The translations under genes and the position numbers were made by a program. From the sequence record NC_047884.1: a DNA stretch of 64,000 nucleotides. The stretch is one strand, 5' to 3'. The notes under the pieces were generated by a model that did not search any database, was not told the origin of the DNA, and saw only the letters and a program-made list of their open reading frames with translations. The stretch is from Escherichia phage saus132. Positions 1 to 8,963 of the stretch are shown piece by piece; position 1 is the stretch's first letter; each line of letters starts with the position of its first letter.

Positions 1-1445
1 TAGATGAAGTATTGGCTCCTTATGTTCGTAAGTCTTACGATAAGAATCATGCGTTTGCAAAACGTTGGACTAAGGATGAAGCCAAAGCATCTGTAATGGC
101 TACGGAAATGACTGAGAAAGAAGTTTACGATGCCTGTCAAGGTCTAGAGTATGAAATCAATACGATGTTCAACTCTAATGGTCAGAGTCCATTTATTACC
201 TTTGGTTTTGGTCTAGGAACTTCCTGGGAAGCACGTCTTGTACAGAAAGCAATCTTAGAAGTGCGTATGGATGGTTTGGGTATCAATAAACGTACAGCTA
301 TCTTCCCTAAACTGGTATTTGTTTTGCGTGATGGCGTAAATATGAAACCTGGTGATGTTAACTATGATATCAAGAAGTTAGCTATGAAATGTACTGCTGA
401 ACGTATGTATCCTGACTACATCAGTTATGATAAGGTTGTAGAAGTTACGGGAGACTACAAAGTCTCTATGGGCTGTCGTTCATTCCTGGCTGCTGCGGAA
501 GATGGTGAAACTTCTGGTCGTAACAACTTAGGCGTTGTTTCCGTAAACCTTCCTCGAATCGCTATCGAAGCGGAAGGAAATATTGATCTATTCTTCGATC
601 TGCTTGAGCTGCGTGTGGATACCGCGTTAAAAGCATTGGAGTGGAGGGTTGATCGCTTAAAATACATCCAAGCTAAAGCTGCGCCCATCCTCTATATGTC
701 AGGAGCCTTTGGATTACGTCTGGGGCCAGATGAATATGTGTTTGATCATTTCTACAAGCGTGCTTCTGTATCTCTAGGATATATTGGTTGCCACGAAATG
801 TTGCAGCTCATGTTTGGTAAAGATGTAGATACAATGTCTGAGTCTTGTATCAAGTTCGTTCAACGTGTGCTACAATACATGCGTGATCGTGCTGATCAGA
901 AGAAGGAAGAGACTCAATTAGGGTATAGTCTGTATGCTACACCATCTGAATCTCTATGTGATCGCTTCTGTCGTCTAGATCGTGAGTATTTCCCAGAGCA
1001 TGAAGATATTCTGGCTAAAGGATATTACACTAACTCTCATCACCTTGATGTGGAGCGTAAGGTTGCTCCGAACGTGAAGTTCGATTATGAGTCTAACTTT
1101 ACCCCAATTGCTTCTGGTGGGTGCATTTCCTATGTGGAATTGCCTGATATGAAACGATTCCCAGATGCGCTGGAGTGGGTTATTAACTATGCTGCAAGTA
1201 AAGTTCATTACTTCGGTATTAATACTCCAGTAGACTCTTGTGGGGAATGTGGATTCTTGGGTGAAACTATAGCTTCTGAGGATGGTTTCAAATGCCCAAT
1301 TTGTGGCAACCATGATCCTGAGACTCTTGAGGTAACTCGTCGAGTTTGCGGATATCTTGGAAATCCAGGTGCTCGTCCATTTAACCCAGGTAAACAACAT
1401 GAGGTTATGGGTCGAGTGAAACATCAGGACATTCGCGCTAAATAA
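1..1445 (+). CDS. nrdD: Anaerobic ribonucleoside-triphosphate reductase (class III, NrdD), 5'-truncated by window edge
   Basis: Reading frame open from window start (ORF track 12..1445); C-terminal Cys4 zinc ribbon (CGECGF...CPICG) followed by glycyl-radical motif RRVCGYLG. Confidence 0.85.
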   Translation, partial: DEVLAPYVRKSYDKNHAFAKRWTKDEAKASVMATEMTEKEVYDACQGLEYEINTMFNSNGQSPFITFGFGLGTSWEARLVQKAILEVRMDGLGINKRTAIFPKLVFVLRDGVNMKPGDVNYDIKKLAMKCTAERMYPDYISYDKVVEVTGDYKVSMGCRSFLAAAEDGETSGRNNLGVVSVNLPRIAIEAEGNIDLFFDLLELRVDTALKALEWRVDRLKYIQAKAAPILYMSGAFGLRLGPDEYVFDHFYKRASVSLGYIGCHEMLQLMFGKDVDTMSESCIKFVQRVLQYMRDRADQKKEETQLGYSLYATPSESLCDRFCRLDREYFPEHEDILAKGYYTNSHHLDVERKVAPNVKFDYESNFTPIASGGCISYVELPDMKRFPDALEWVINYAASKVHYFGINTPVDSCGECGFLGETIASEDGFKCPICGNHDPETLEVTRRVCGYLGNPGARPFNPGKQHEVMGRVKHQDIRAK

Positions 1446-1532: not shown

Positions 1533-2219
1533 ATGGTACGAAGGAAGTTAGATAAAGACACTATCAATAAAGATTTAGAGCCTAGAAGAATTAAGCTAAT
1601 AAGTGAGTATTCTGGAATCCTTAATAAAGGCACATTCATATGTAGTGTAGGTCATACATGGGAAGCTACTGTTAATAATGTAAGGAATAGCAAATCTGGC
1701 TGTCCAATATGCGCAGGTACTTTTAAACTTACTAAAGATTCGGTAAATGAAGGGTTACGTAGTAGGGGTATTACTCTTATTGGAGAGTATAAAAATAATG
1801 CTACTAAAACTCTTTTTGAATGTGAGCATGGGCATAGGTGGGAAGCCACAGTAGGCAATGTAAAGAATAAAAATTCTGGGTGTCCTGTGTGCGATACTGA
1901 TTGGAATACCCCTGGTTTTATATACATTATGTGTAGTAGTATGGGAACTAAAATAGGAATTAGTATCTCTCCTGAAAGACGGTGGAAAGAGATAGTTAAA
2001 AGCTCCAATATACTAGATTTATATATTTTTGGTGTCTATTCAATAGATTCTGGTACCAAATCTAAAAGTAGGTCTATCGAGAAACAGACTCATGAATATT
2101 TTTCAGAATATAGATTAAAGTATACAGGATTTGCTGGATGTACTGAATTCTTTGATATATCTCCCATAGCCGTAGAAAAGCACTTAATTAATAATGGGTG
2201 TATAAAGGTAGAAAAATAA
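1533..2219 (+). CDS. Putative GIY-YIG-like (T5orf172-type) nuclease with two N-terminal zinc-ribbon repeats
   Basis: Duplicated HxWEATVxNV...SGCPxC repeat; C-terminal GFIYIM...KIGIS segment; very AT-rich island. Confidence 0.5.
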   Translation: MVRRKLDKDTINKDLEPRRIKLISEYSGILNKGTFICSVGHTWEATVNNVRNSKSGCPICAGTFKLTKDSVNEGLRSRGITLIGEYKNNATKTLFECEHGHRWEATVGNVKNKNSGCPVCDTDWNTPGFIYIMCSSMGTKIGISISPERRWKEIVKSSNILDLYIFGVYSIDSGTKSKSRSIEKQTHEYFSEYRLKYTGFAGCTEFFDISPIAVEKHLINNGCIKVEK

Positions 2220-2844: not shown

Positions 2845-3058
2845 AAATGTTAGTCTTATTGATCTGAATAAGCTCAATCAAGAGTTTCAGGGAGTTTTAA
2901 TGAAGCACTGGGAAACTGGTTATAAGGATGGTGTTGAATCCTGTGCTACTATGCTAGAAGTTCTTGCTGATAACCTAGTGGAGAAAGGCAATAAAGAATT
3001 AGCTGAGCTGTTAGACAGTATTGGGCAAAACTTTAGAGAACAGGTGAAAAATGCGTAG
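2813..3058 (+). CDS. Hypothetical small protein (start uncertain)
   Basis: ORF in operon context; no motif recognised. Confidence 0.4.
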   Translation: MAFSSQKLPGENVSLIDLNKLNQEFQGVLMKHWETGYKDGVESCATMLEVLADNLVEKGNKELAELLDSIGQNFREQVKNA

Positions 3059-3902
3059 ACTAATCGTTGTTAGTGGTGCAGGTTTGAGTGTAGATAGTGG
3101 TGTTCGTGCTTTCCGTACTGATACTGCTAGTGGGAAATCCTTGTGGGATGAGTACGATCTAGAGGAAGTATGTAGCTTGCCTAACTTTGAAGCTGGCTTC
3201 CGTCGCTTCTGTGGTGAAGATGATCCTAACTACTTCAGTGCTCGTTTCCCTGGCATTGATGAAGATGGTAACGATCTGTATCTCAAGACTCATGAGTTCT
3301 ACAACATGCGTCGTCAGGAATTACAGACTGTTGAGCCTAACATTGCCCATCTGCGAATTGCAGAATGGTTCCAGCGTTATGGTGCGGATAGCGTGAAGAA
3401 CTTCACTACTAACGTTGATGACCTTCTGGAGCGCGCTGGTATCCCTCGTGATGAAATCATCCATGCTCACGGATACTTGAAAGAGGTGATCTATCGTCGG
3501 GGTCGCAATCAAATCATCGAAGATGTTGGATACACTGCAATTGTTCCTGAAGATTACGAATGGGTAAAACCAAACGTGGTGTTCTTTGGTGAAACAGCTC
3601 CGTGGTACATGGGTCAGATCAACCTGTTTGATACGCTTACTAGCAATGATATGGTTATTGTGGTGGGTTGTAGCAACCAAGTTATCAACTTCAACTGGGA
3701 ATTATTCCCTGCTGTATGTCGTGGAACTAAGATGATGGTTGTTAACCCTCAAGTTCGTTATGATGAACAGCTTGAGTATGAGAAACGTGGTGTTACTGTA
3801 TGGCGGGCTGGAGCTGCCGAAGTTTTTGGTAACAAGAATTTCATTGGTCAAGTAGAAGCCTTTATGGAAGGAACTATTTATGCACCGCAAGAGCATGTGT
3901 GA
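3051..3902 (+). CDS. Sir2-family (sirtuin-like) NAD-dependent enzyme lacking the zinc-ribbon cysteines
   Basis: Motifs VVSGAGLSVDSGVRAFR (GAGxS), TTNVD, catalytic HG, VVFFGE, VVGCS; no CxxC pairs between HG and FGE. Confidence 0.7.
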   Translation: MRRLIVVSGAGLSVDSGVRAFRTDTASGKSLWDEYDLEEVCSLPNFEAGFRRFCGEDDPNYFSARFPGIDEDGNDLYLKTHEFYNMRRQELQTVEPNIAHLRIAEWFQRYGADSVKNFTTNVDDLLERAGIPRDEIIHAHGYLKEVIYRRGRNQIIEDVGYTAIVPEDYEWVKPNVVFFGETAPWYMGQINLFDTLTSNDMVIVVGCSNQVINFNWELFPAVCRGTKMMVVNPQVRYDEQLEYEKRGVTVWRAGAAEVFGNKNFIGQVEAFMEGTIYAPQEHV

Positions 3903-4042
3903 TCTTTTAGTATGGCCGGACGGTAGTTGGTGCTACCGTTTCGAATTTGCTACCGATGACTTCTCATGGAAGAGTGATGATTTCTGCGTTATCTATGAGG
4001 ATACAGCAGAATGGAAAGAGTTCCTTATTAAGGAGGGAGAAT

Positions 4043-4228
4043 ATGGTGAAGAAGATTTTTAAGGGTATCTGGAAGGGTCTAGTATGGTTTGTCAACCTAA
4101 TTGGTATGATTACCATTTATTCTCTGTTCCTATCTGTTATGTGGGGTAAAGGTGAGCTGAAGGTTCCGGTTCCTTTTACTGATGAAGTTAAAGTCTGGAC
4201 GTGGGATGCTACTGGTGGAAATAAGTAA
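4043..4228 (+). CDS. Small membrane protein (61 aa)
   Basis: Strong RBS AAGGAGGGAGA before ATG 4043; single hydrophobic helix VWFVNLIGMITIYSLFLSVMW. Confidence 0.4.
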   Translation: MVKKIFKGIWKGLVWFVNLIGMITIYSLFLSVMWGKGELKVPVPFTDEVKVWTWDATGGNK

Positions 4229-4721
4229 TACTCCTGTGATTTTCCTGGATATTGATGGGGTACTCAATTCGAGCATCTCTCACCATCATGCTCTAGACAG
4301 TGAAAAGCTGTTCTTTGGCAGTGATTGGGTTTATAAGCCATTACTCCAGGTTTTTCAGAACTTTCTTAAACCCTCCCCAATAATGATTGTTGGGGTCTCT
4401 TCATGGTTTTCTGTACGAAATGAAATGGAGAACGTTCAGATTATGACCGGACTCGGTTTGATCGATCGTTTCCTTGGTACAACAGATTTTACTGGAGGTG
4501 GTTTATATCGGGGTAATTCTGTTTTACGTTTCGTCGAAAAACATAAGCTCAAGCATTGGTGTGTCTTAGACGATGCTGGTGCTATGATGTATCAATTTCC
4601 TACTGTTATTGTAAATGGCAGGACTGGAGTAAACCTTCAAGATTTAAATGCTATAAGCTATATGCTGGAATTTAGTCCAGATCTTGAAATGTGTAAGGCT
4701 CTTCAGAAACTTAAGGTATAA
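4206..4721 (+). CDS. HAD-superfamily phosphatase-like protein (start uncertain)
   Basis: N-terminal FLDIDGVLN (DxDGx motif I), later VLDD motif. Confidence 0.5.
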   Translation: MLLVEISNTPVIFLDIDGVLNSSISHHHALDSEKLFFGSDWVYKPLLQVFQNFLKPSPIMIVGVSSWFSVRNEMENVQIMTGLGLIDRFLGTTDFTGGGLYRGNSVLRFVEKHKLKHWCVLDDAGAMMYQFPTVIVNGRTGVNLQDLNAISYMLEFSPDLEMCKALQKLKV

Positions 4722-4723
4722 GC

Positions 4724-5152
4724 ATGTTCAATAATATTTTCATGAAAGAGGTAAATCCTATGCTCCTCAACTTCTGGCGTTCTCTCCCTAATGGTATGTA
4801 TAATGAAACCATCAATCTGCTTAAGATTTGGTGTGAGAATAATGATATCTTCTTATCCTTTAAAGGCCCACTAGAGGAAGCTCCATGTATTGGAGTTAGT
4901 GTGGATTTAGGTGAGGGAGTAGAAGAGATTGTAGACTGGAAAGAACTCGATGAAATGGGTCTGGTTTTTGCCTTAAATCATAAGCTGTTTATGCCTGCAA
5001 ATCACCGTCTTATTGTAAATTATCGCACTGGTGAAGCTCCTGCTTTCCAGGTAAATGAACGTGAGGGCTGGTCATATTCGCCCGAGGAAGTAAATGAGGG
5101 GATTCAGAAACTTCGTCGTTTCGGGTATATGATCCCAGGTTTAACTGCTTAA
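4724..5152 (+). CDS. Hypothetical protein, paralog A of a tandem pair
   Basis: Shares MGLVFALN...P...TGE...PGL pattern with the next ORF. Confidence 0.6.
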   Translation: MFNNIFMKEVNPMLLNFWRSLPNGMYNETINLLKIWCENNDIFLSFKGPLEEAPCIGVSVDLGEGVEEIVDWKELDEMGLVFALNHKLFMPANHRLIVNYRTGEAPAFQVNEREGWSYSPEEVNEGIQKLRRFGYMIPGLTA

Positions 5153-5161
5153 GGAGGCAGA

Positions 5162-5557
5162 ATGGAACAAGTATTTTGGCGTCAGATAGATCCTAGTTTG
5201 GTAGAGCGTGCTGAGGGGCTCCTTGCACGTTGGTTGGGGGTTGACAAGGTTAGTGTAACATTTCCGTTTACTTCTGTAACAGACCCTAGTGTAGGTGTCT
5301 TTGTGGACGAAGATGAAGATGATGGTTGGGAAGCTGACTGGAATGAATTGTCCAGTATGGGCTTGATTGTTGCCCTCAACTTCTCTATATTCCATCCACG
5401 TGGCTTAGCCATTACACGTGACCCCGAAACTGGTGAATCCCCTTATCTTTTGCAAGTAGAAGATGATATTTGGGAGTACACCGAAGATATTCTCGAAGAA
5501 GCTAAAGGTCAATTAAATCGCATTGGGATCTATGTTCCAGGCCTAAATGATGATTGA
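5162..5557 (+). CDS. Hypothetical protein, paralog B of a tandem pair
   Basis: MGLIVALNFSIFHP...TGESPY...VPGL aligns with the preceding ORF. Confidence 0.6.
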   Translation: MEQVFWRQIDPSLVERAEGLLARWLGVDKVSVTFPFTSVTDPSVGVFVDEDEDDGWEADWNELSSMGLIVALNFSIFHPRGLAITRDPETGESPYLLQVEDDIWEYTEDILEEAKGQLNRIGIYVPGLNDD

Positions 5558-5648
5558 TTTTCATTAGTCCAATCCTGATTACCGAGTCATTTTGGCTCGG
5601 TTTTCTCTGTGCTCAAAGACACTGATAGCACCTTCGGAAAAATTTTAC

Positions 5649-5678: not shown

Positions 5679-6173
5679 TTTATATTGAATTGAGAGACAT
5701 TAGTAAAAATTGATTTTGCTAATTTTTCTTGTTTACAATCCGCAATACGGAACAGTTAGGCTGCCCCATTAAGGGTTGTTTTAACTATTACTAGTGTTTA
5801 TACTGCATTAGTTAATTATCAATTAAGTGATCTGCGTACCCTGAATTCGGAAAGGTAAATCCAAACCGTGCATATTTAGCTCGTTATATAGGCAGAGCTT
5901 TATATGGGGGTGCGAACGAAAAGAGCAGCGAATGGTGACACGTCCAGTAGCCACCTACCAATAGGATAGTGAGGGCAATCAGAATCGGCTTAGCGGCCAA
6001 TGACCTAGGTTCTGATCTGGATAAGAGTTAAGAGAGCGCAGCACTGAGGTATGATAACTTATTCATACTGCTTGATGATGATTAATGTTTGTGTAAATGG
6101 TAGTAATAGTTGTTCTATTCTTTTGAATAGTCCTAAAGAAAGATATCCGAATAACCAACATAGGAGTATTGTT

Positions 6174-8963
6174 GTGTTCTCAATCCTACAAGGTCACGCA
6201 GGATTTTCCAGAGATAAAGCCACTGGCATCTGGAAAGAGATCAAAGTGGAAGACTACACCTTTGCAAAGCGATTCTCTAAAGAGCATCCAGAAGGTAAAC
6301 CAGCTTCCATGCCCTTCAAATTTGATGTACTTGAAGAACTTGACCCGCAAAACCTTGCTGAAATGTTACCTATCATGCGTCGTCTTACCAAAGACCCGCA
6401 TATTGTAGCTATTCGTGGTAAATGTTTAGCTCCAAAAGATAATGTGCGTCGTACCAGAGGAAACTTTAATGTATCCAATCCTAGTCATATTATTGCTATG
6501 GACGTGGATGGTATTGTAGATACTGGTGGCTATGACAAGTTTAATCTTGTCGGCATGGCACGTCATATTATTAAGATGTTGAATAGTATTAGTGAGGATA
6601 TGTTTCCTCTTGATGCAGGGTTTATTGCTCATGCATCGTCTTCGGCTGGCTTAAAACCAGGTATCCGAATGCACTTAATGCTAGAATCTAATGTCAAGGT
6701 AACGCAGGGGCAATTAAAATTCCTATTTACATCCATCAATGACAGTAGTAAGCAAAAGTATGGCTTTGATATTGCTGACTTAGCTTATTATTCTTCTGTT
6801 CAGCTTCACTATTTCGCAGATCCCTTATTTGATGATGGTATAGTCGATCCGTTTAAAGCGGAGAATAAACCACGTCTTGTGTATGTTAAGGGTTCGAAAG
6901 TGAATCTACCCAATAACCTAGTTGACTTTGAAACAACTAGAGGTGAGTTTAAAGAAGAATTCTACTCCTTACTTGACCAAATTAAAGGCAAGAAGGCTGC
7001 ATCTGATAAAGTGGAAGAAACCATCAGCGAACTAGAAGAAGCTGAGGATGGGGTGTACCTGCGTATTATCCCAAAACTTTATCACAGAGCGTTAGAAGAT
7101 GGTGTTGACTTTACGTGGTTAGAACGTGAGATTAAACCAGCTTTATCTGAGTATATTGCGACTAAAGATAATAGTCGTAATATTCAAGATTACTTTAATA
7201 ACGGTCGTAAGCAGGCTCTCAAAGCCTTTGTAAATAACTCCAAACGTGAGATTCCACCAAACTTAAAAGGTGTACCATTAAAACGTCTAGACACAGATTC
7301 TCCACCAGAAGTTCCATACCTGAAAATTAACATTGTACCACCAAAAGGACATTTAACATTTGTTAAGGCAAGTCTTGGTACGGGTAAAACTACAGCAGTA
7401 ACTAAGTGGCTAGATGCAGGTGTTCTTCCAGGGAACTTTATTGCAATCACAAATACTAGGGCACTTGTATCTTCTAACGCGAAGAAATTCGGTGCTGGCC
7501 AGTATGATAAGTCAGTTGATATGCTGAACTTCAAACGTGGTGCTATTGATCGTATGTCTTCAACTATTCACTCTATCCATAAGTTCAAGAGCTTTGTGGG
7601 TCAGATTGATACGATCTTTATTGATGAATGTGATGCAGTAATGAACGATCTGTTATTCGCTCCGGTTGTTAAAAACCGTCGTGAATGTATTCAGGTTCTT
7701 CGTGATATTCTTATTACTGCAAAAACGGTGATCTTATCTGATGGGGATATCAGTGCAGAAACGATTGAAGCCTATGGTTCTTTGATTGATTTTGATAAAC
7801 CGGTTGCGTTCTATAATCATCACCGTAAAATGCTGGCAAAAGCTCATGCTTATGAATTCCCTGACGAATCCAGTATTTGGGTTGCACTTCAAACATCTCT
7901 AGAGATGGGTGAGAAGTCAATCCTAGTATCTGACTGTGGACCAGATGAACTGAATGAAAAGGGAATGGCATTACGTCGTAATACGGGTGCGTTAGTTAAA
8001 GAAATTCACTCAAACTCTACGTCTGATGTAGATATCCGTCGTATTCTGGATTATACAACTAATGAGCTAATTGATCAACAGATTGATTGTTTGTTATGTA
8101 GTCCATCTGTAACGAGTGGTGTTGACTTTAACTATTTTGATAACGTATTCGTAATCACTAGAACCTCAAACCAAGCGCCAAACATGCGTTTTCAAGCAAT
8201 CAGGCGCGACCGTGGTGCTCAGAACATTTATTATTTTATTGATAAATCTACGAGTGGATTTTCTGCGGGTTCCGAGCAATATAATATTGACGAAGGTTGG
8301 ATTGAGTTAGCCCAACAACTGTACGCACGTCGCCGTGAGCTGGAATCTAGAAACTATACCAGTACTTTGCGTTATTATCTTCTCGATCAAGGTGCAACTA
8401 TCGATATTTTCAGCGAAAGCTGGGGAACTATCGAAGGTGCAGGCAAAGAGTATATAGAAGAGCGAATCAAAGCTATTTTGCACTCAACTCCTGAATATTG
8501 CGCACCACGTCATGCAGACGCCTATGAAGCCAAGTTACTTCTGGTTCGCTATTATCATCTGGATTCTATTAAAGATGTAATAGTGGAACACGTTGAACAG
8601 TATATTAAGGATAAACCAAACGATAGAGCTGCATTCTTCCATAAGATGCACGACATGTTCTGGGAAGATATTAAAAAGTGTTCAAACGTAACAATCAAAC
8701 CGTTTATCGAAGCTCTTAAGAATAAGAAGAAGGATTTCTTCCTTAAGACAGGTCAGAGCGCTAACCCAAAATATGCTCGTATGTATCTTGGCATGATGGG
8801 TATCGGTAAAGATCTGGATACGGAAAAGATTGTGGACTGGTACAGAACTTACTGTAAGATCGAATGTATGCCGATTCCAGTTAAGTTTATGACAGATGAA
8901 GAACGTCAGATGCATGAGGAAGCTCTTGCTGAATTGGGGGCTAGAAATGACAGCGAAGAATAA
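6174..8963 (+). CDS. Putative replication initiator / origin-binding-type helicase-like ATPase
   Basis: Walker A SLGTGKTT, Walker B FIDECD; start placed at GTG 6174 (RBS AGGAG 7 nt upstream) instead of track start 6051. Confidence 0.6.
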   Translation: MFSILQGHAGFSRDKATGIWKEIKVEDYTFAKRFSKEHPEGKPASMPFKFDVLEELDPQNLAEMLPIMRRLTKDPHIVAIRGKCLAPKDNVRRTRGNFNVSNPSHIIAMDVDGIVDTGGYDKFNLVGMARHIIKMLNSISEDMFPLDAGFIAHASSSAGLKPGIRMHLMLESNVKVTQGQLKFLFTSINDSSKQKYGFDIADLAYYSSVQLHYFADPLFDDGIVDPFKAENKPRLVYVKGSKVNLPNNLVDFETTRGEFKEEFYSLLDQIKGKKAASDKVEETISELEEAEDGVYLRIIPKLYHRALEDGVDFTWLEREIKPALSEYIATKDNSRNIQDYFNNGRKQALKAFVNNSKREIPPNLKGVPLKRLDTDSPPEVPYLKINIVPPKGHLTFVKASLGTGKTTAVTKWLDAGVLPGNFIAITNTRALVSSNAKKFGAGQYDKSVDMLNFKRGAIDRMSSTIHSIHKFKSFVGQIDTIFIDECDAVMNDLLFAPVVKNRRECIQVLRDILITAKTVILSDGDISAETIEAYGSLIDFDKPVAFYNHHRKMLAKAHAYEFPDESSIWVALQTSLEMGEKSILVSDCGPDELNEKGMALRRNTGALVKEIHSNSTSDVDIRRILDYTTNELIDQQIDCLLCSPSVTSGVDFNYFDNVFVITRTSNQAPNMRFQAIRRDRGAQNIYYFIDKSTSGFSAGSEQYNIDEGWIELAQQLYARRRELESRNYTSTLRYYLLDQGATIDIFSESWGTIEGAGKEYIEERIKAILHSTPEYCAPRHADAYEAKLLLVRYYHLDSIKDVIVEHVEQYIKDKPNDRAAFFHKMHDMFWEDIKKCSNVTIKPFIEALKNKKKDFFLKTGQSANPKYARMYLGMMGIGKDLDTEKIVDWYRTYCKIECMPIPVKFMTDEERQMHEEALAELGARNDSEE

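Follow-up and report, generated by a model that had tools for sequence, protein, structure and literature searches.

Two adjacent DUF7415 genes and their locus

We analyzed a 64,000-nt (nucleotide) stretch of the genome of Escherichia phage saus132 (NC_047884.1), further referred to as the window, and in it two adjacent genes, denoted here A and B. Gene A (4724..5152, plus strand) encodes a 142-aa (amino acid) protein orthologous to T5.106 of phage T5, and gene B (5162..5557, plus strand), a 131-aa protein orthologous to T5.107. Both are open reading frame (ORF) calls found at the places given in a preliminary description made from the letters of this DNA, and both are listed as "hypothetical protein" in the GenBank record. 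The genes occupy the same strand at a distance of 9 nt, with no gene in between, and share a reading frame. The junction (5150..5161, plus strand) comprises the TAA stop codon of A, a GGAGG Shine–Dalgarno sequence (5153–5157) and a 4-nt spacer CAGA followed by the ATG of B, and its in-frame translation is A*GGR-B. The A-to-B offset of 438 nt is also present in T5, where the two genes likewise lie in one frame.

The proteins are clearly similar, as the preliminary description had claimed: BLASTP aligns them over 124 residues without gaps at 31% identity (E 1e-20). The score of 69.7 bits, calculated with no composition correction, far exceeds those of 300 shuffles of B (mean 12.9, sd 4.6, maximum 26.9; z ~12), and both halves of the proteins contribute, with Smith–Waterman z of 8.8 for the N-terminal halves and 18.6 for the C-terminal ones. 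The strings quoted in the preliminary description can be found in the proteins, A having MGLVFALNHKLFMP and ...MIPGLTA, and B, MGLIVALNFSIFHP and ...YVPGLNDD; of the acidic runs attributed to both proteins, that of B is evident (DEDEDD) and that of A is weaker (GEGVEE). Both proteins belong to the Pfam family PF24187 (DUF7415), with 125.5 bits for A and 98.2 bits for B at a gathering cut-off of 27 bits, and match the 134-position profile of phrog_2502 end to end (A residues 11–142 to profile positions 2–134, E 7e-60; B residues 1–130 to positions 4–134, E 2e-58). Scanning the 64-kb window with the family hidden Markov model (HMM) yielded no further matching ORF. That the resemblance is due to chance, or that the ORFs have been mis-called, is practically excluded by the comparison with shuffled sequences, as well as by the low ratios of nonsynonymous to synonymous substitution rates (dN/dS), the many database orthologs and the confident AlphaFold2 (AF2) folds of both ORFs described below. 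The names given by depositors to the orthologs P0001, P0024, P0039 and P0041 conflict with each other ("tail tube protein", "exonuclease", "Phage exonuclease (ACLAME 70)"), and we found no domain or fold evidence in support of the "tail tube" and "exonuclease" names of these four proteins.

Genes A and B close a rightward block of genes, whose order in the window is the 3' part of nrdD, a homing-endonuclease-like ORF, small ORFs, a Sir2-family gene, two ORFs of ~60 aa, a HAD_SAK_2 gene, A, B, and a hairpin. The block is headed by the nrdD fragment (12..1445, plus strand), encoding anaerobic ribonucleotide reductase (Pfam NRDD, 446 bits, and Gly_radical). The Sir2-family gene (3051..3902, plus strand; Pfam SIR2, 78 bits; phrog_2162), an ortholog of T5.102, lies upstream of A and B in the same transcription unit, and the HAD_SAK_2 phosphatase-like gene (4182..4721, plus strand; PF18143, 63.7 bits), an ortholog of T5.105 whose GenBank start corresponds to window position 4206, has its stop codon 2 nt ahead of the ATG of A. 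A terminator-like hairpin of the intrinsic type (5581–5601, plus strand; 9-bp stem with 5 GC pairs), with a T-run extending to 5611, is located 24 nt past the stop codon of B. A terminator is annotated at the matching position in T5 and in Serratia phage Slocum, and, as judged by its sequence, the terminator-like hairpin at 5581..5611 marks the operon end.

The same unit is known in T5, where Sir2 (T5.102) is followed by T5.103, T5.104, the HAD-like T5.105, T5.106, T5.107, an annotated terminator, a promoter, and the primase/origin-binding gene T5.108. Genes T5.106 (YP_006934) and T5.107 (YP_006935) are direct orthologs of A and B, with the same order, spacing, and Sir2-HAD-A-B-terminator operon; the window belongs to Epseptimavirus and T5 to Tequintavirus, and the loci differ in nothing else of substance. 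The segment 4182–5800 of the window is 100% identical to MF431736 (T5-like phage chee130_1, Epseptimavirus) and shares 95–99% identity with hundreds of T5-like phages of Salmonella and Escherichia.

Duplication and asymmetric divergence

The preliminary description attributed the similarity of A and B to an old tandem duplication, and the distribution of one and two copies among relatives agrees with this. The A-then-B pair is present in all 28 Markadamsvirinae loci retrieved from IMG/VR, a scan that returned close T5-like relatives only, as well as in phages T5 and Eos; it is also found in Sugarlandvirus of Klebsiella and in one T5-like lineage known from metagenomes (L010/L011). In four other T5-like lineages, that is, L007 (protein P0048), L008 (P0052), L009 (P0053) and Serratia phage Slocum, one two-domain copy occupies the same position: it follows Sir2 and, in the loci that extend far enough (L007, L009, Slocum), precedes the primase gene. 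The small ORFs flanking the single copy at these four loci do not match the family. A neighbor-joining (NJ) tree was computed for 29 two-domain proteins, and in it the A-types from every paired lineage cluster together in a single clade (85% bootstrap). The single-copy protein P0048 is intermediate: its identity is 39% with A and 40% with B, compared to 31% between A and B. The sequence comparisons thus support well the conclusion that A and B are old tandem duplicates of one phage-specific gene. The simplest history, with moderate support, would be one duplication early in the family, the alternative being that some lineages lost a copy after the duplication; the tree support is moderate and not conclusive, since this is a distance tree on 133 columns.

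The spacing of the two genes varies between lineages. In Sugarlandvirus and L010, A and B overlap by 4 nt (stop/start, ATGA), and in Eos the annotated coding sequences overlap by 23 nt. We considered a fusion of A and B by stop-codon read-through and rejected it: the shared frame is not kept outside Markadamsvirinae, the genes overlapping there, and hence read-through is unlikely to matter. In Klebsiella phage IME260 (L002, NC_041899), gp118, annotated as a 95-aa protein, is a 5'-truncated call of the T5.106 ortholog; the full ORF (L002 3510–3986, listed extent 3510–3989) matches columns 4–130 of the family HMM, and its 133-aa form in the database is P0064.

To describe the family more widely, we used an exhaustive HMMER search of 1.84 billion representatives, which yielded 153 clusters at 50% identity. 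Two-domain proteins constitute approximately 20 of them and are largely confined to T5-like phages, the other clusters matching only profile positions ~56–110, that is, the C-terminal domain; this ~55-residue domain is present alone or fused in more than 100 clusters of the 153. Four long proteins with multiple matches (P0056, P0084, P0170, P0189) contain Ig/cadherin-type or compositionally biased repeats and were set aside as false positives. An HMM built from 113 stand-alone domains has the consensus IDWNELSELGLIxRINREILHPLGLAxxRDPETGxSxGALVADDGVWEY, in which N, G, and S are invariant and H-P-x-G-L-A is nearly invariant; the signature surface of the family is HPxGLA...RDPxTGxSP.

The two copies differ sharply with respect to this signature. 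The C-terminal core of B (D59–Y106; 5336..5479, plus strand; DWNELSSMGLIVALNFSIFHPRGLAITRDPETGESPYLLQVEDDIWEY) has the canonical DUF7415 signature (FHPRGLAITRDPETGESP) and scores 79 bits against the stand-alone-domain HMM, while the core of A (D71–Y118; 4934..5077, plus strand; DWKELDEMGLVFALNHKLFMPANHRLIVNYRTGEAPAFQVNEREGWSY) has a degenerate one (FMPANHRLIVNYRTGEAP) and scores 32 bits. In A, the invariant G and S have given way to N and A, and M, H, and R stand in place of the H, L, and A that are nearly invariant in the family, respectively. The same trend holds for the family, the C-terminal halves of B-type and single-copy proteins mostly scoring 51–86 bits, and those of A-type proteins, 10–32 bits. 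Still, A is 73% identical to T5.106, and B is 69% identical to T5.107, with dN/dS relative to T5 of ~0.09 for A and ~0.24 for B, the values being rough as dS is near saturation. The substitution pattern indicates that both copies are under purifying selection, which is strong in A. As the signature residues of A have been replaced under strong purifying selection, A and B form an asymmetric pair of a conserved and a specialized gene, rather than a gene and its decaying copy; by the same sequence evidence, B is the conservative copy, and A, the specialized one. Both proteins retain the C-terminal PGL tail.

Domain architecture and genomic context of DUF7415

Unlike most DUF7415 members, which consist of a single ~55-residue domain, A and B are two-domain proteins, and A lacks the invariant G and S. 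Full-length A and B match PF24187 and PHROG 2502, and their C-terminal halves also match the stand-alone PHROGs 3954, 1812, and 33705. The N-terminal domain of A spans approximately residues 12–68 (4757..4927, plus strand) and is of a type confined to the two-domain proteins of T5-like phages; in the AF2 model it contains strands at residues 14–16, 42–46, 55–61, and 67–71, and a helix at residues 25–37. The N-terminal domain of B (residues 1–57; 5162..5332, plus strand) aligns with the N-terminal half of A with the z value given above. The model of A has a predicted local distance difference test score (pLDDT) of 88.3 and a predicted template modeling score (pTM) of 0.82 and shows a compact monomer with a helix-plus-hairpins fold; the model of B residues 56–131 has pLDDT 91.9. 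A model of a B-type protein from BFVD superimposes on the AF2 model of A with template modeling (TM) scores of 0.85/0.92 and a root-mean-square deviation of 1.9, and the BFVD search returned only other DUF7415 proteins. According to these models, the ~55-residue C-terminal DUF7415 domain would comprise two helices, a beta-hairpin, a WxY turn, and a third helix, with the N-terminal domain packing against it. We also considered A as a leucine-rich repeat (LRR) protein and rejected this candidate: the PDB matches cover only residues 15–42 of A with 0 stretches past the threshold, there is no Pfam LRR match, and the AF2 model consists of a helix and hairpins.

The two-domain structure raises the question of whether each protein is itself a tandem of two DUF7415 domains, in which case the locus would contain four copies of a 53-residue unit produced by a domain duplication and a subsequent gene duplication. 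The DUF7415 model indeed matches every half taken alone with a score above its cut-off (73.3 bits for the N-terminal and 56.6 bits for the C-terminal half of A, 44.4 and 57.9 bits, respectively, for those of B), and a pattern of W-x-x-L, a 13-residue helix, and a beta-hairpin is seen in both halves of the AF2 model. However, hhalign of the N-half and C-half profiles gives a probability of 1.5%, the stand-alone-domain HMM from 113 domains scores at most 3.8 bits on every N-terminal half, the reciprocal N-half HMM reaches 11 bits on the stand-alone domains (E 0.003 among 113), and pairwise z are 0.4–1.3; moreover, the half-matches to the Pfam model may just reflect the presence of both types of halves in the Pfam seed. 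We regard the four-fold repeat as possible, though less likely than not.

DUF7415 is associated with nucleotide metabolism by its fusions and neighboring genes. The domain is fused to Thymidylate_kin (P0085), to dATP-dGTP_PPHyd, PF04447 (P0174, P0178), to DUF3850/ASCH (P0180), and, weakly, to a ClpX-type zinc finger. In Jiaodavirus, T4-like Klebsiella phages, a DUF7415 gene of 72–77 aa is located between nrdD and nrdG, its ends overlapping the two neighbors; such stand-alone genes are found in KP179 (L040, 2989–3207) and KMI12 (L041, 3974–4207), and this arrangement recurs in many of the listed Jiaodavirus genomes. In Aeromonas phage Ah1, the DUF7415 gene begins at the rnlA stop codon, with td and a HAD_SAK_2 gene approximately 2 kb upstream of it, and in Klebsiella phage Roth22 it is situated one gene downstream of a Nudix gene. 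The nrdD...Sir2-HAD-A-B block of the window is a further association of this kind. The domain fusions, together with the position between nrdD and nrdG, point to an accessory role in nucleotide metabolism.

Among T5-like phages, DUF7415 genes are located at most ~1.3 kb downstream of Sir2 in eight of the eight lineages inspected (the window, L002, L007–L010, L042, L043). This proximity persists where nrdD is missing (Slocum), where the HAD gene is missing (Sugarlandvirus, L008, Slocum), or where it has moved (L010). Given these absences and the relocation in L010, linkage to the HAD gene as a general rule was rejected; in Morganella phage MP1, no DUF7415 ORF was found within 3.5 kb of the HAD gene.

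Possible function of the pair and other genes of the block

One experimental result is available for the T5 orthologs. In the CRISPRi-ART screen of T5 (PMC11879866 supplement), T5.107 is among the 17 "Fit" genes and is described as "of entirely unknown function", with a mean guide fitness of –2.90 (p 0.02), while T5.106 is "Not Fit" at –3.28 (p 0.17), and so are the Sir2 and HAD genes of T5. Two further papers, on the Clover dNTPase and on HIDEN-SEQ, contain nothing on the A/B genes.

Taken together, these data are best explained if A and B, as orthologs of T5.106 and T5.107, stem from one ancient tandem duplication, and DUF7415 is a binding module of nucleotide/NAD metabolism, a reading that we consider probable. 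An ancestral phage-specific gene situated downstream of Sir2 and closing the rightward, presumably early, block of T5-like phages (Demerecviridae) would have been duplicated once in tandem, its product having a lineage-specific N-terminal domain set against a widespread C-terminal DUF7415 domain. After the duplication, as the sequences show, B retained the signature surface (HPxGLA...RDPxTGxSP), and A exchanged these residues under strong purifying selection. We suggest that DUF7415 is probably a small non-enzymatic module serving phage nucleotide/NAD metabolism by binding a partner enzyme or a nucleotide-like ligand, with B carrying the ancestral binding site and A acting as a structural partner or being retargeted. 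A physical complex of A and B is plausible.

Several observations weigh against this explanation. Three sampled stand-alone homologs lie among anonymous small genes, and conserved gene order inside a single phage family argues only weakly for a functional tie to Sir2 or nrdD. With p 0.02, the "Fit" call of T5.107 is a borderline one, and the ortholog of T5.108, annotated as a DNA primase/replication-origin-binding protein, came out as "Not Fit" in that screen (PMC11879866 supplement). Neither DUF7415 nor T5.105–107 were found in the main texts of the literature searched. The NJ tree relates distant sequences over its 133 columns, so that repeated duplication or gene conversion retains some small probability. 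Foldseek comparison with PDB revealed no solved relative (best E 0.11 for A and 1.0 for the C-terminal domain of B, TM at most 0.31), sequence searches of PDB gave chance LRR, Rhs, and ACE matches only, and there is no NCBIfam model for the A/B family.

The relation between the two proteins can be seen in two ways. They could be obligate partners in one complex, in keeping with the possible heterodimer of the preliminary description, where B would provide the functional site and A would be a degenerate pseudo-subunit. In the loci examined, A is always accompanied by B immediately downstream, and the genes are tightly spaced or overlapping, with GGAGG positioned 4 nt before the ATG of B in the window and the overlaps of 4 nt in Sugarlandvirus and L010 and of 23 nt in Eos; the signature is lost in A alone, which is still constrained (dN/dS 0.09), and the PGL tail is kept in both proteins. 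Such adjacent, close or overlapping paralogs, of which one keeps the signature and the other loses it, resemble known heteromers formed by an active and a degenerate paralog. On the other hand, A is predicted as a confident compact monomer, single-copy relatives get by with one protein, and T5.107 is "Fit" and T5.106 is not, which is a weak argument against strict co-dependence; the screen itself is insensitive. We regard an obligate heteromer as possible, short of probable. Alternatively, A and B could be independent paralogs, sub- or neofunctionalized towards separate partners or ligands and adjacent by descent only. The conserved surface of A is wholly unlike the family signature and yet strongly kept among A orthologs, the scores of the two orthologs in the T5 screen differ, and, as seen from the stand-alone and single-copy forms, the module functions without a paralogous partner. 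Against this, we found no lineage where A is kept and B lost, or the reverse, and the close spacing or overlap points to matched expression; independence of the two proteins is also a tentative option.

A role in anti-defense has also to be weighed, in which DUF7415 would capture an immune signal derived from nucleotides or counteract a host defense that depletes NAD or dNTPs, the variable copy number and rapid divergence reflecting an arms race. The proteins are small, accessory, and phage-restricted, with a patchy distribution and many architectures, and have Sir2, HAD, and Nudix-type genes as neighbors; moreover, the Roth22 homolog bears the depositor label "anti-CBASS protein acb1". However, the fusion partners are housekeeping nucleotide enzymes and not known anti-defense domains, and the fitness effect of T5.107 was seen on the host of the CRISPRi-ART screen, which may or may not carry defense systems, so anti-defense seems improbable and a weaker alternative than the module of nucleotide/NAD metabolism. 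The label itself is unsupported. It belongs to an 85-aa DUF7415 protein of Roth22 (L003, 2477–2734), for which the only PDB sequence match is a chance one to a PQQ-binding beta-propeller protein (E 0.88), and Foldseek comparison of the models of A and of the C-terminal domain of B with PDB gave no match at E ≤ 0.001, the Acb1/2H phosphoesterase fold included. Hence the label looks like an annotation error. Acb1 is far longer than 85 aa.

The binding module of nucleotide/NAD metabolism, which we prefer, has a parallel in the small accessory or regulatory domains of nucleotide-metabolism enzymes, such as the ATP-cone of ribonucleotide reductases and NrdR. DUF7415, too, is a small helix-plus-hairpin module, found alone or fused to nucleotide enzymes and beside ribonucleotide reductase genes. 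This is an analogy only, as we detected no sequence or structural similarity (no Pfam ATP-cone match, no PDB fold match). In a stronger form of the idea, DUF7415 would be an unrecognized regulatory or adaptor module of phage nucleotide/NAD metabolism, with a fold without a solved relative, and a hetero-complex of active B and degenerate A would tune an enzyme of the nrdD–Sir2 block, acting, e.g., on anaerobic ribonucleotide reduction or Sir2 activity. If true, this would account for the fitness cost of T5.107 knock-down, yet we consider this form quite unlikely.

The duplication is real, but, except for the hints at nucleotide metabolism, ordinary: both genes have been catalogued before (T5.106/T5.107, DUF7415, phrog_2502), and tandem duplications are commonplace. 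As it stands, a textbook case involving two hypothetical genes of known families changes little. What is added to the databases is modest: the asymmetric divergence, the single-copy outgroups, the associations with nucleotide metabolism, and the connection with a weak fitness phenotype. It could matter modestly in that T5.107, one of only 17 fitness-relevant T5 genes, gains a testable idea, that of an accessory binding module of nucleotide metabolism, based on the signature present in B and lost in A, the stand-alone copy between nrdD and nrdG, and the fusions with dTMP kinase and dNTP pyrophosphohydrolase. The single-copy and paired lineages, in turn, constitute a natural experiment on the specialization of duplicates.

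Other genes of the block deserve brief mention. Directly 3' of nrdD, a 228-aa ORF (1533–2219, plus strand) contains a DUF4379 treble-clef zinc finger, a CapR homology domain, and MUG113/T5orf172; judging by these domains, it appears to be an insertion of a GIY-YIG-type homing endonuclease into the nrdD–Sir2 block. Two small ORFs (3880–4062 and 4046–4228, both plus strand) follow Sir2. The first of them encodes a 60-aa "WPDGSWCY" protein (phrog_5116), which is also encoded 3' of Sir2 in Eos, Sugarlandvirus (where it is unannotated), L010, L007, and T5. In T5, both T5.103 and T5.104 belong to phrog_5116 and form a second small tandem pair; the second small slot of the window is occupied by an unrelated hydrophobic 60-aa ORF, common to L007 and not belonging to phrog_5116. 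Downstream of the pair, the primase/origin-binding ORF (6051–8963, plus strand) has a mechanically called start at 6051 (970 aa), compared to the GenBank start at window position 6174 (L001 9993), and between the terminator of B and this gene there is a non-coding stretch of approximately 500 bp that contains promoter-like sites.

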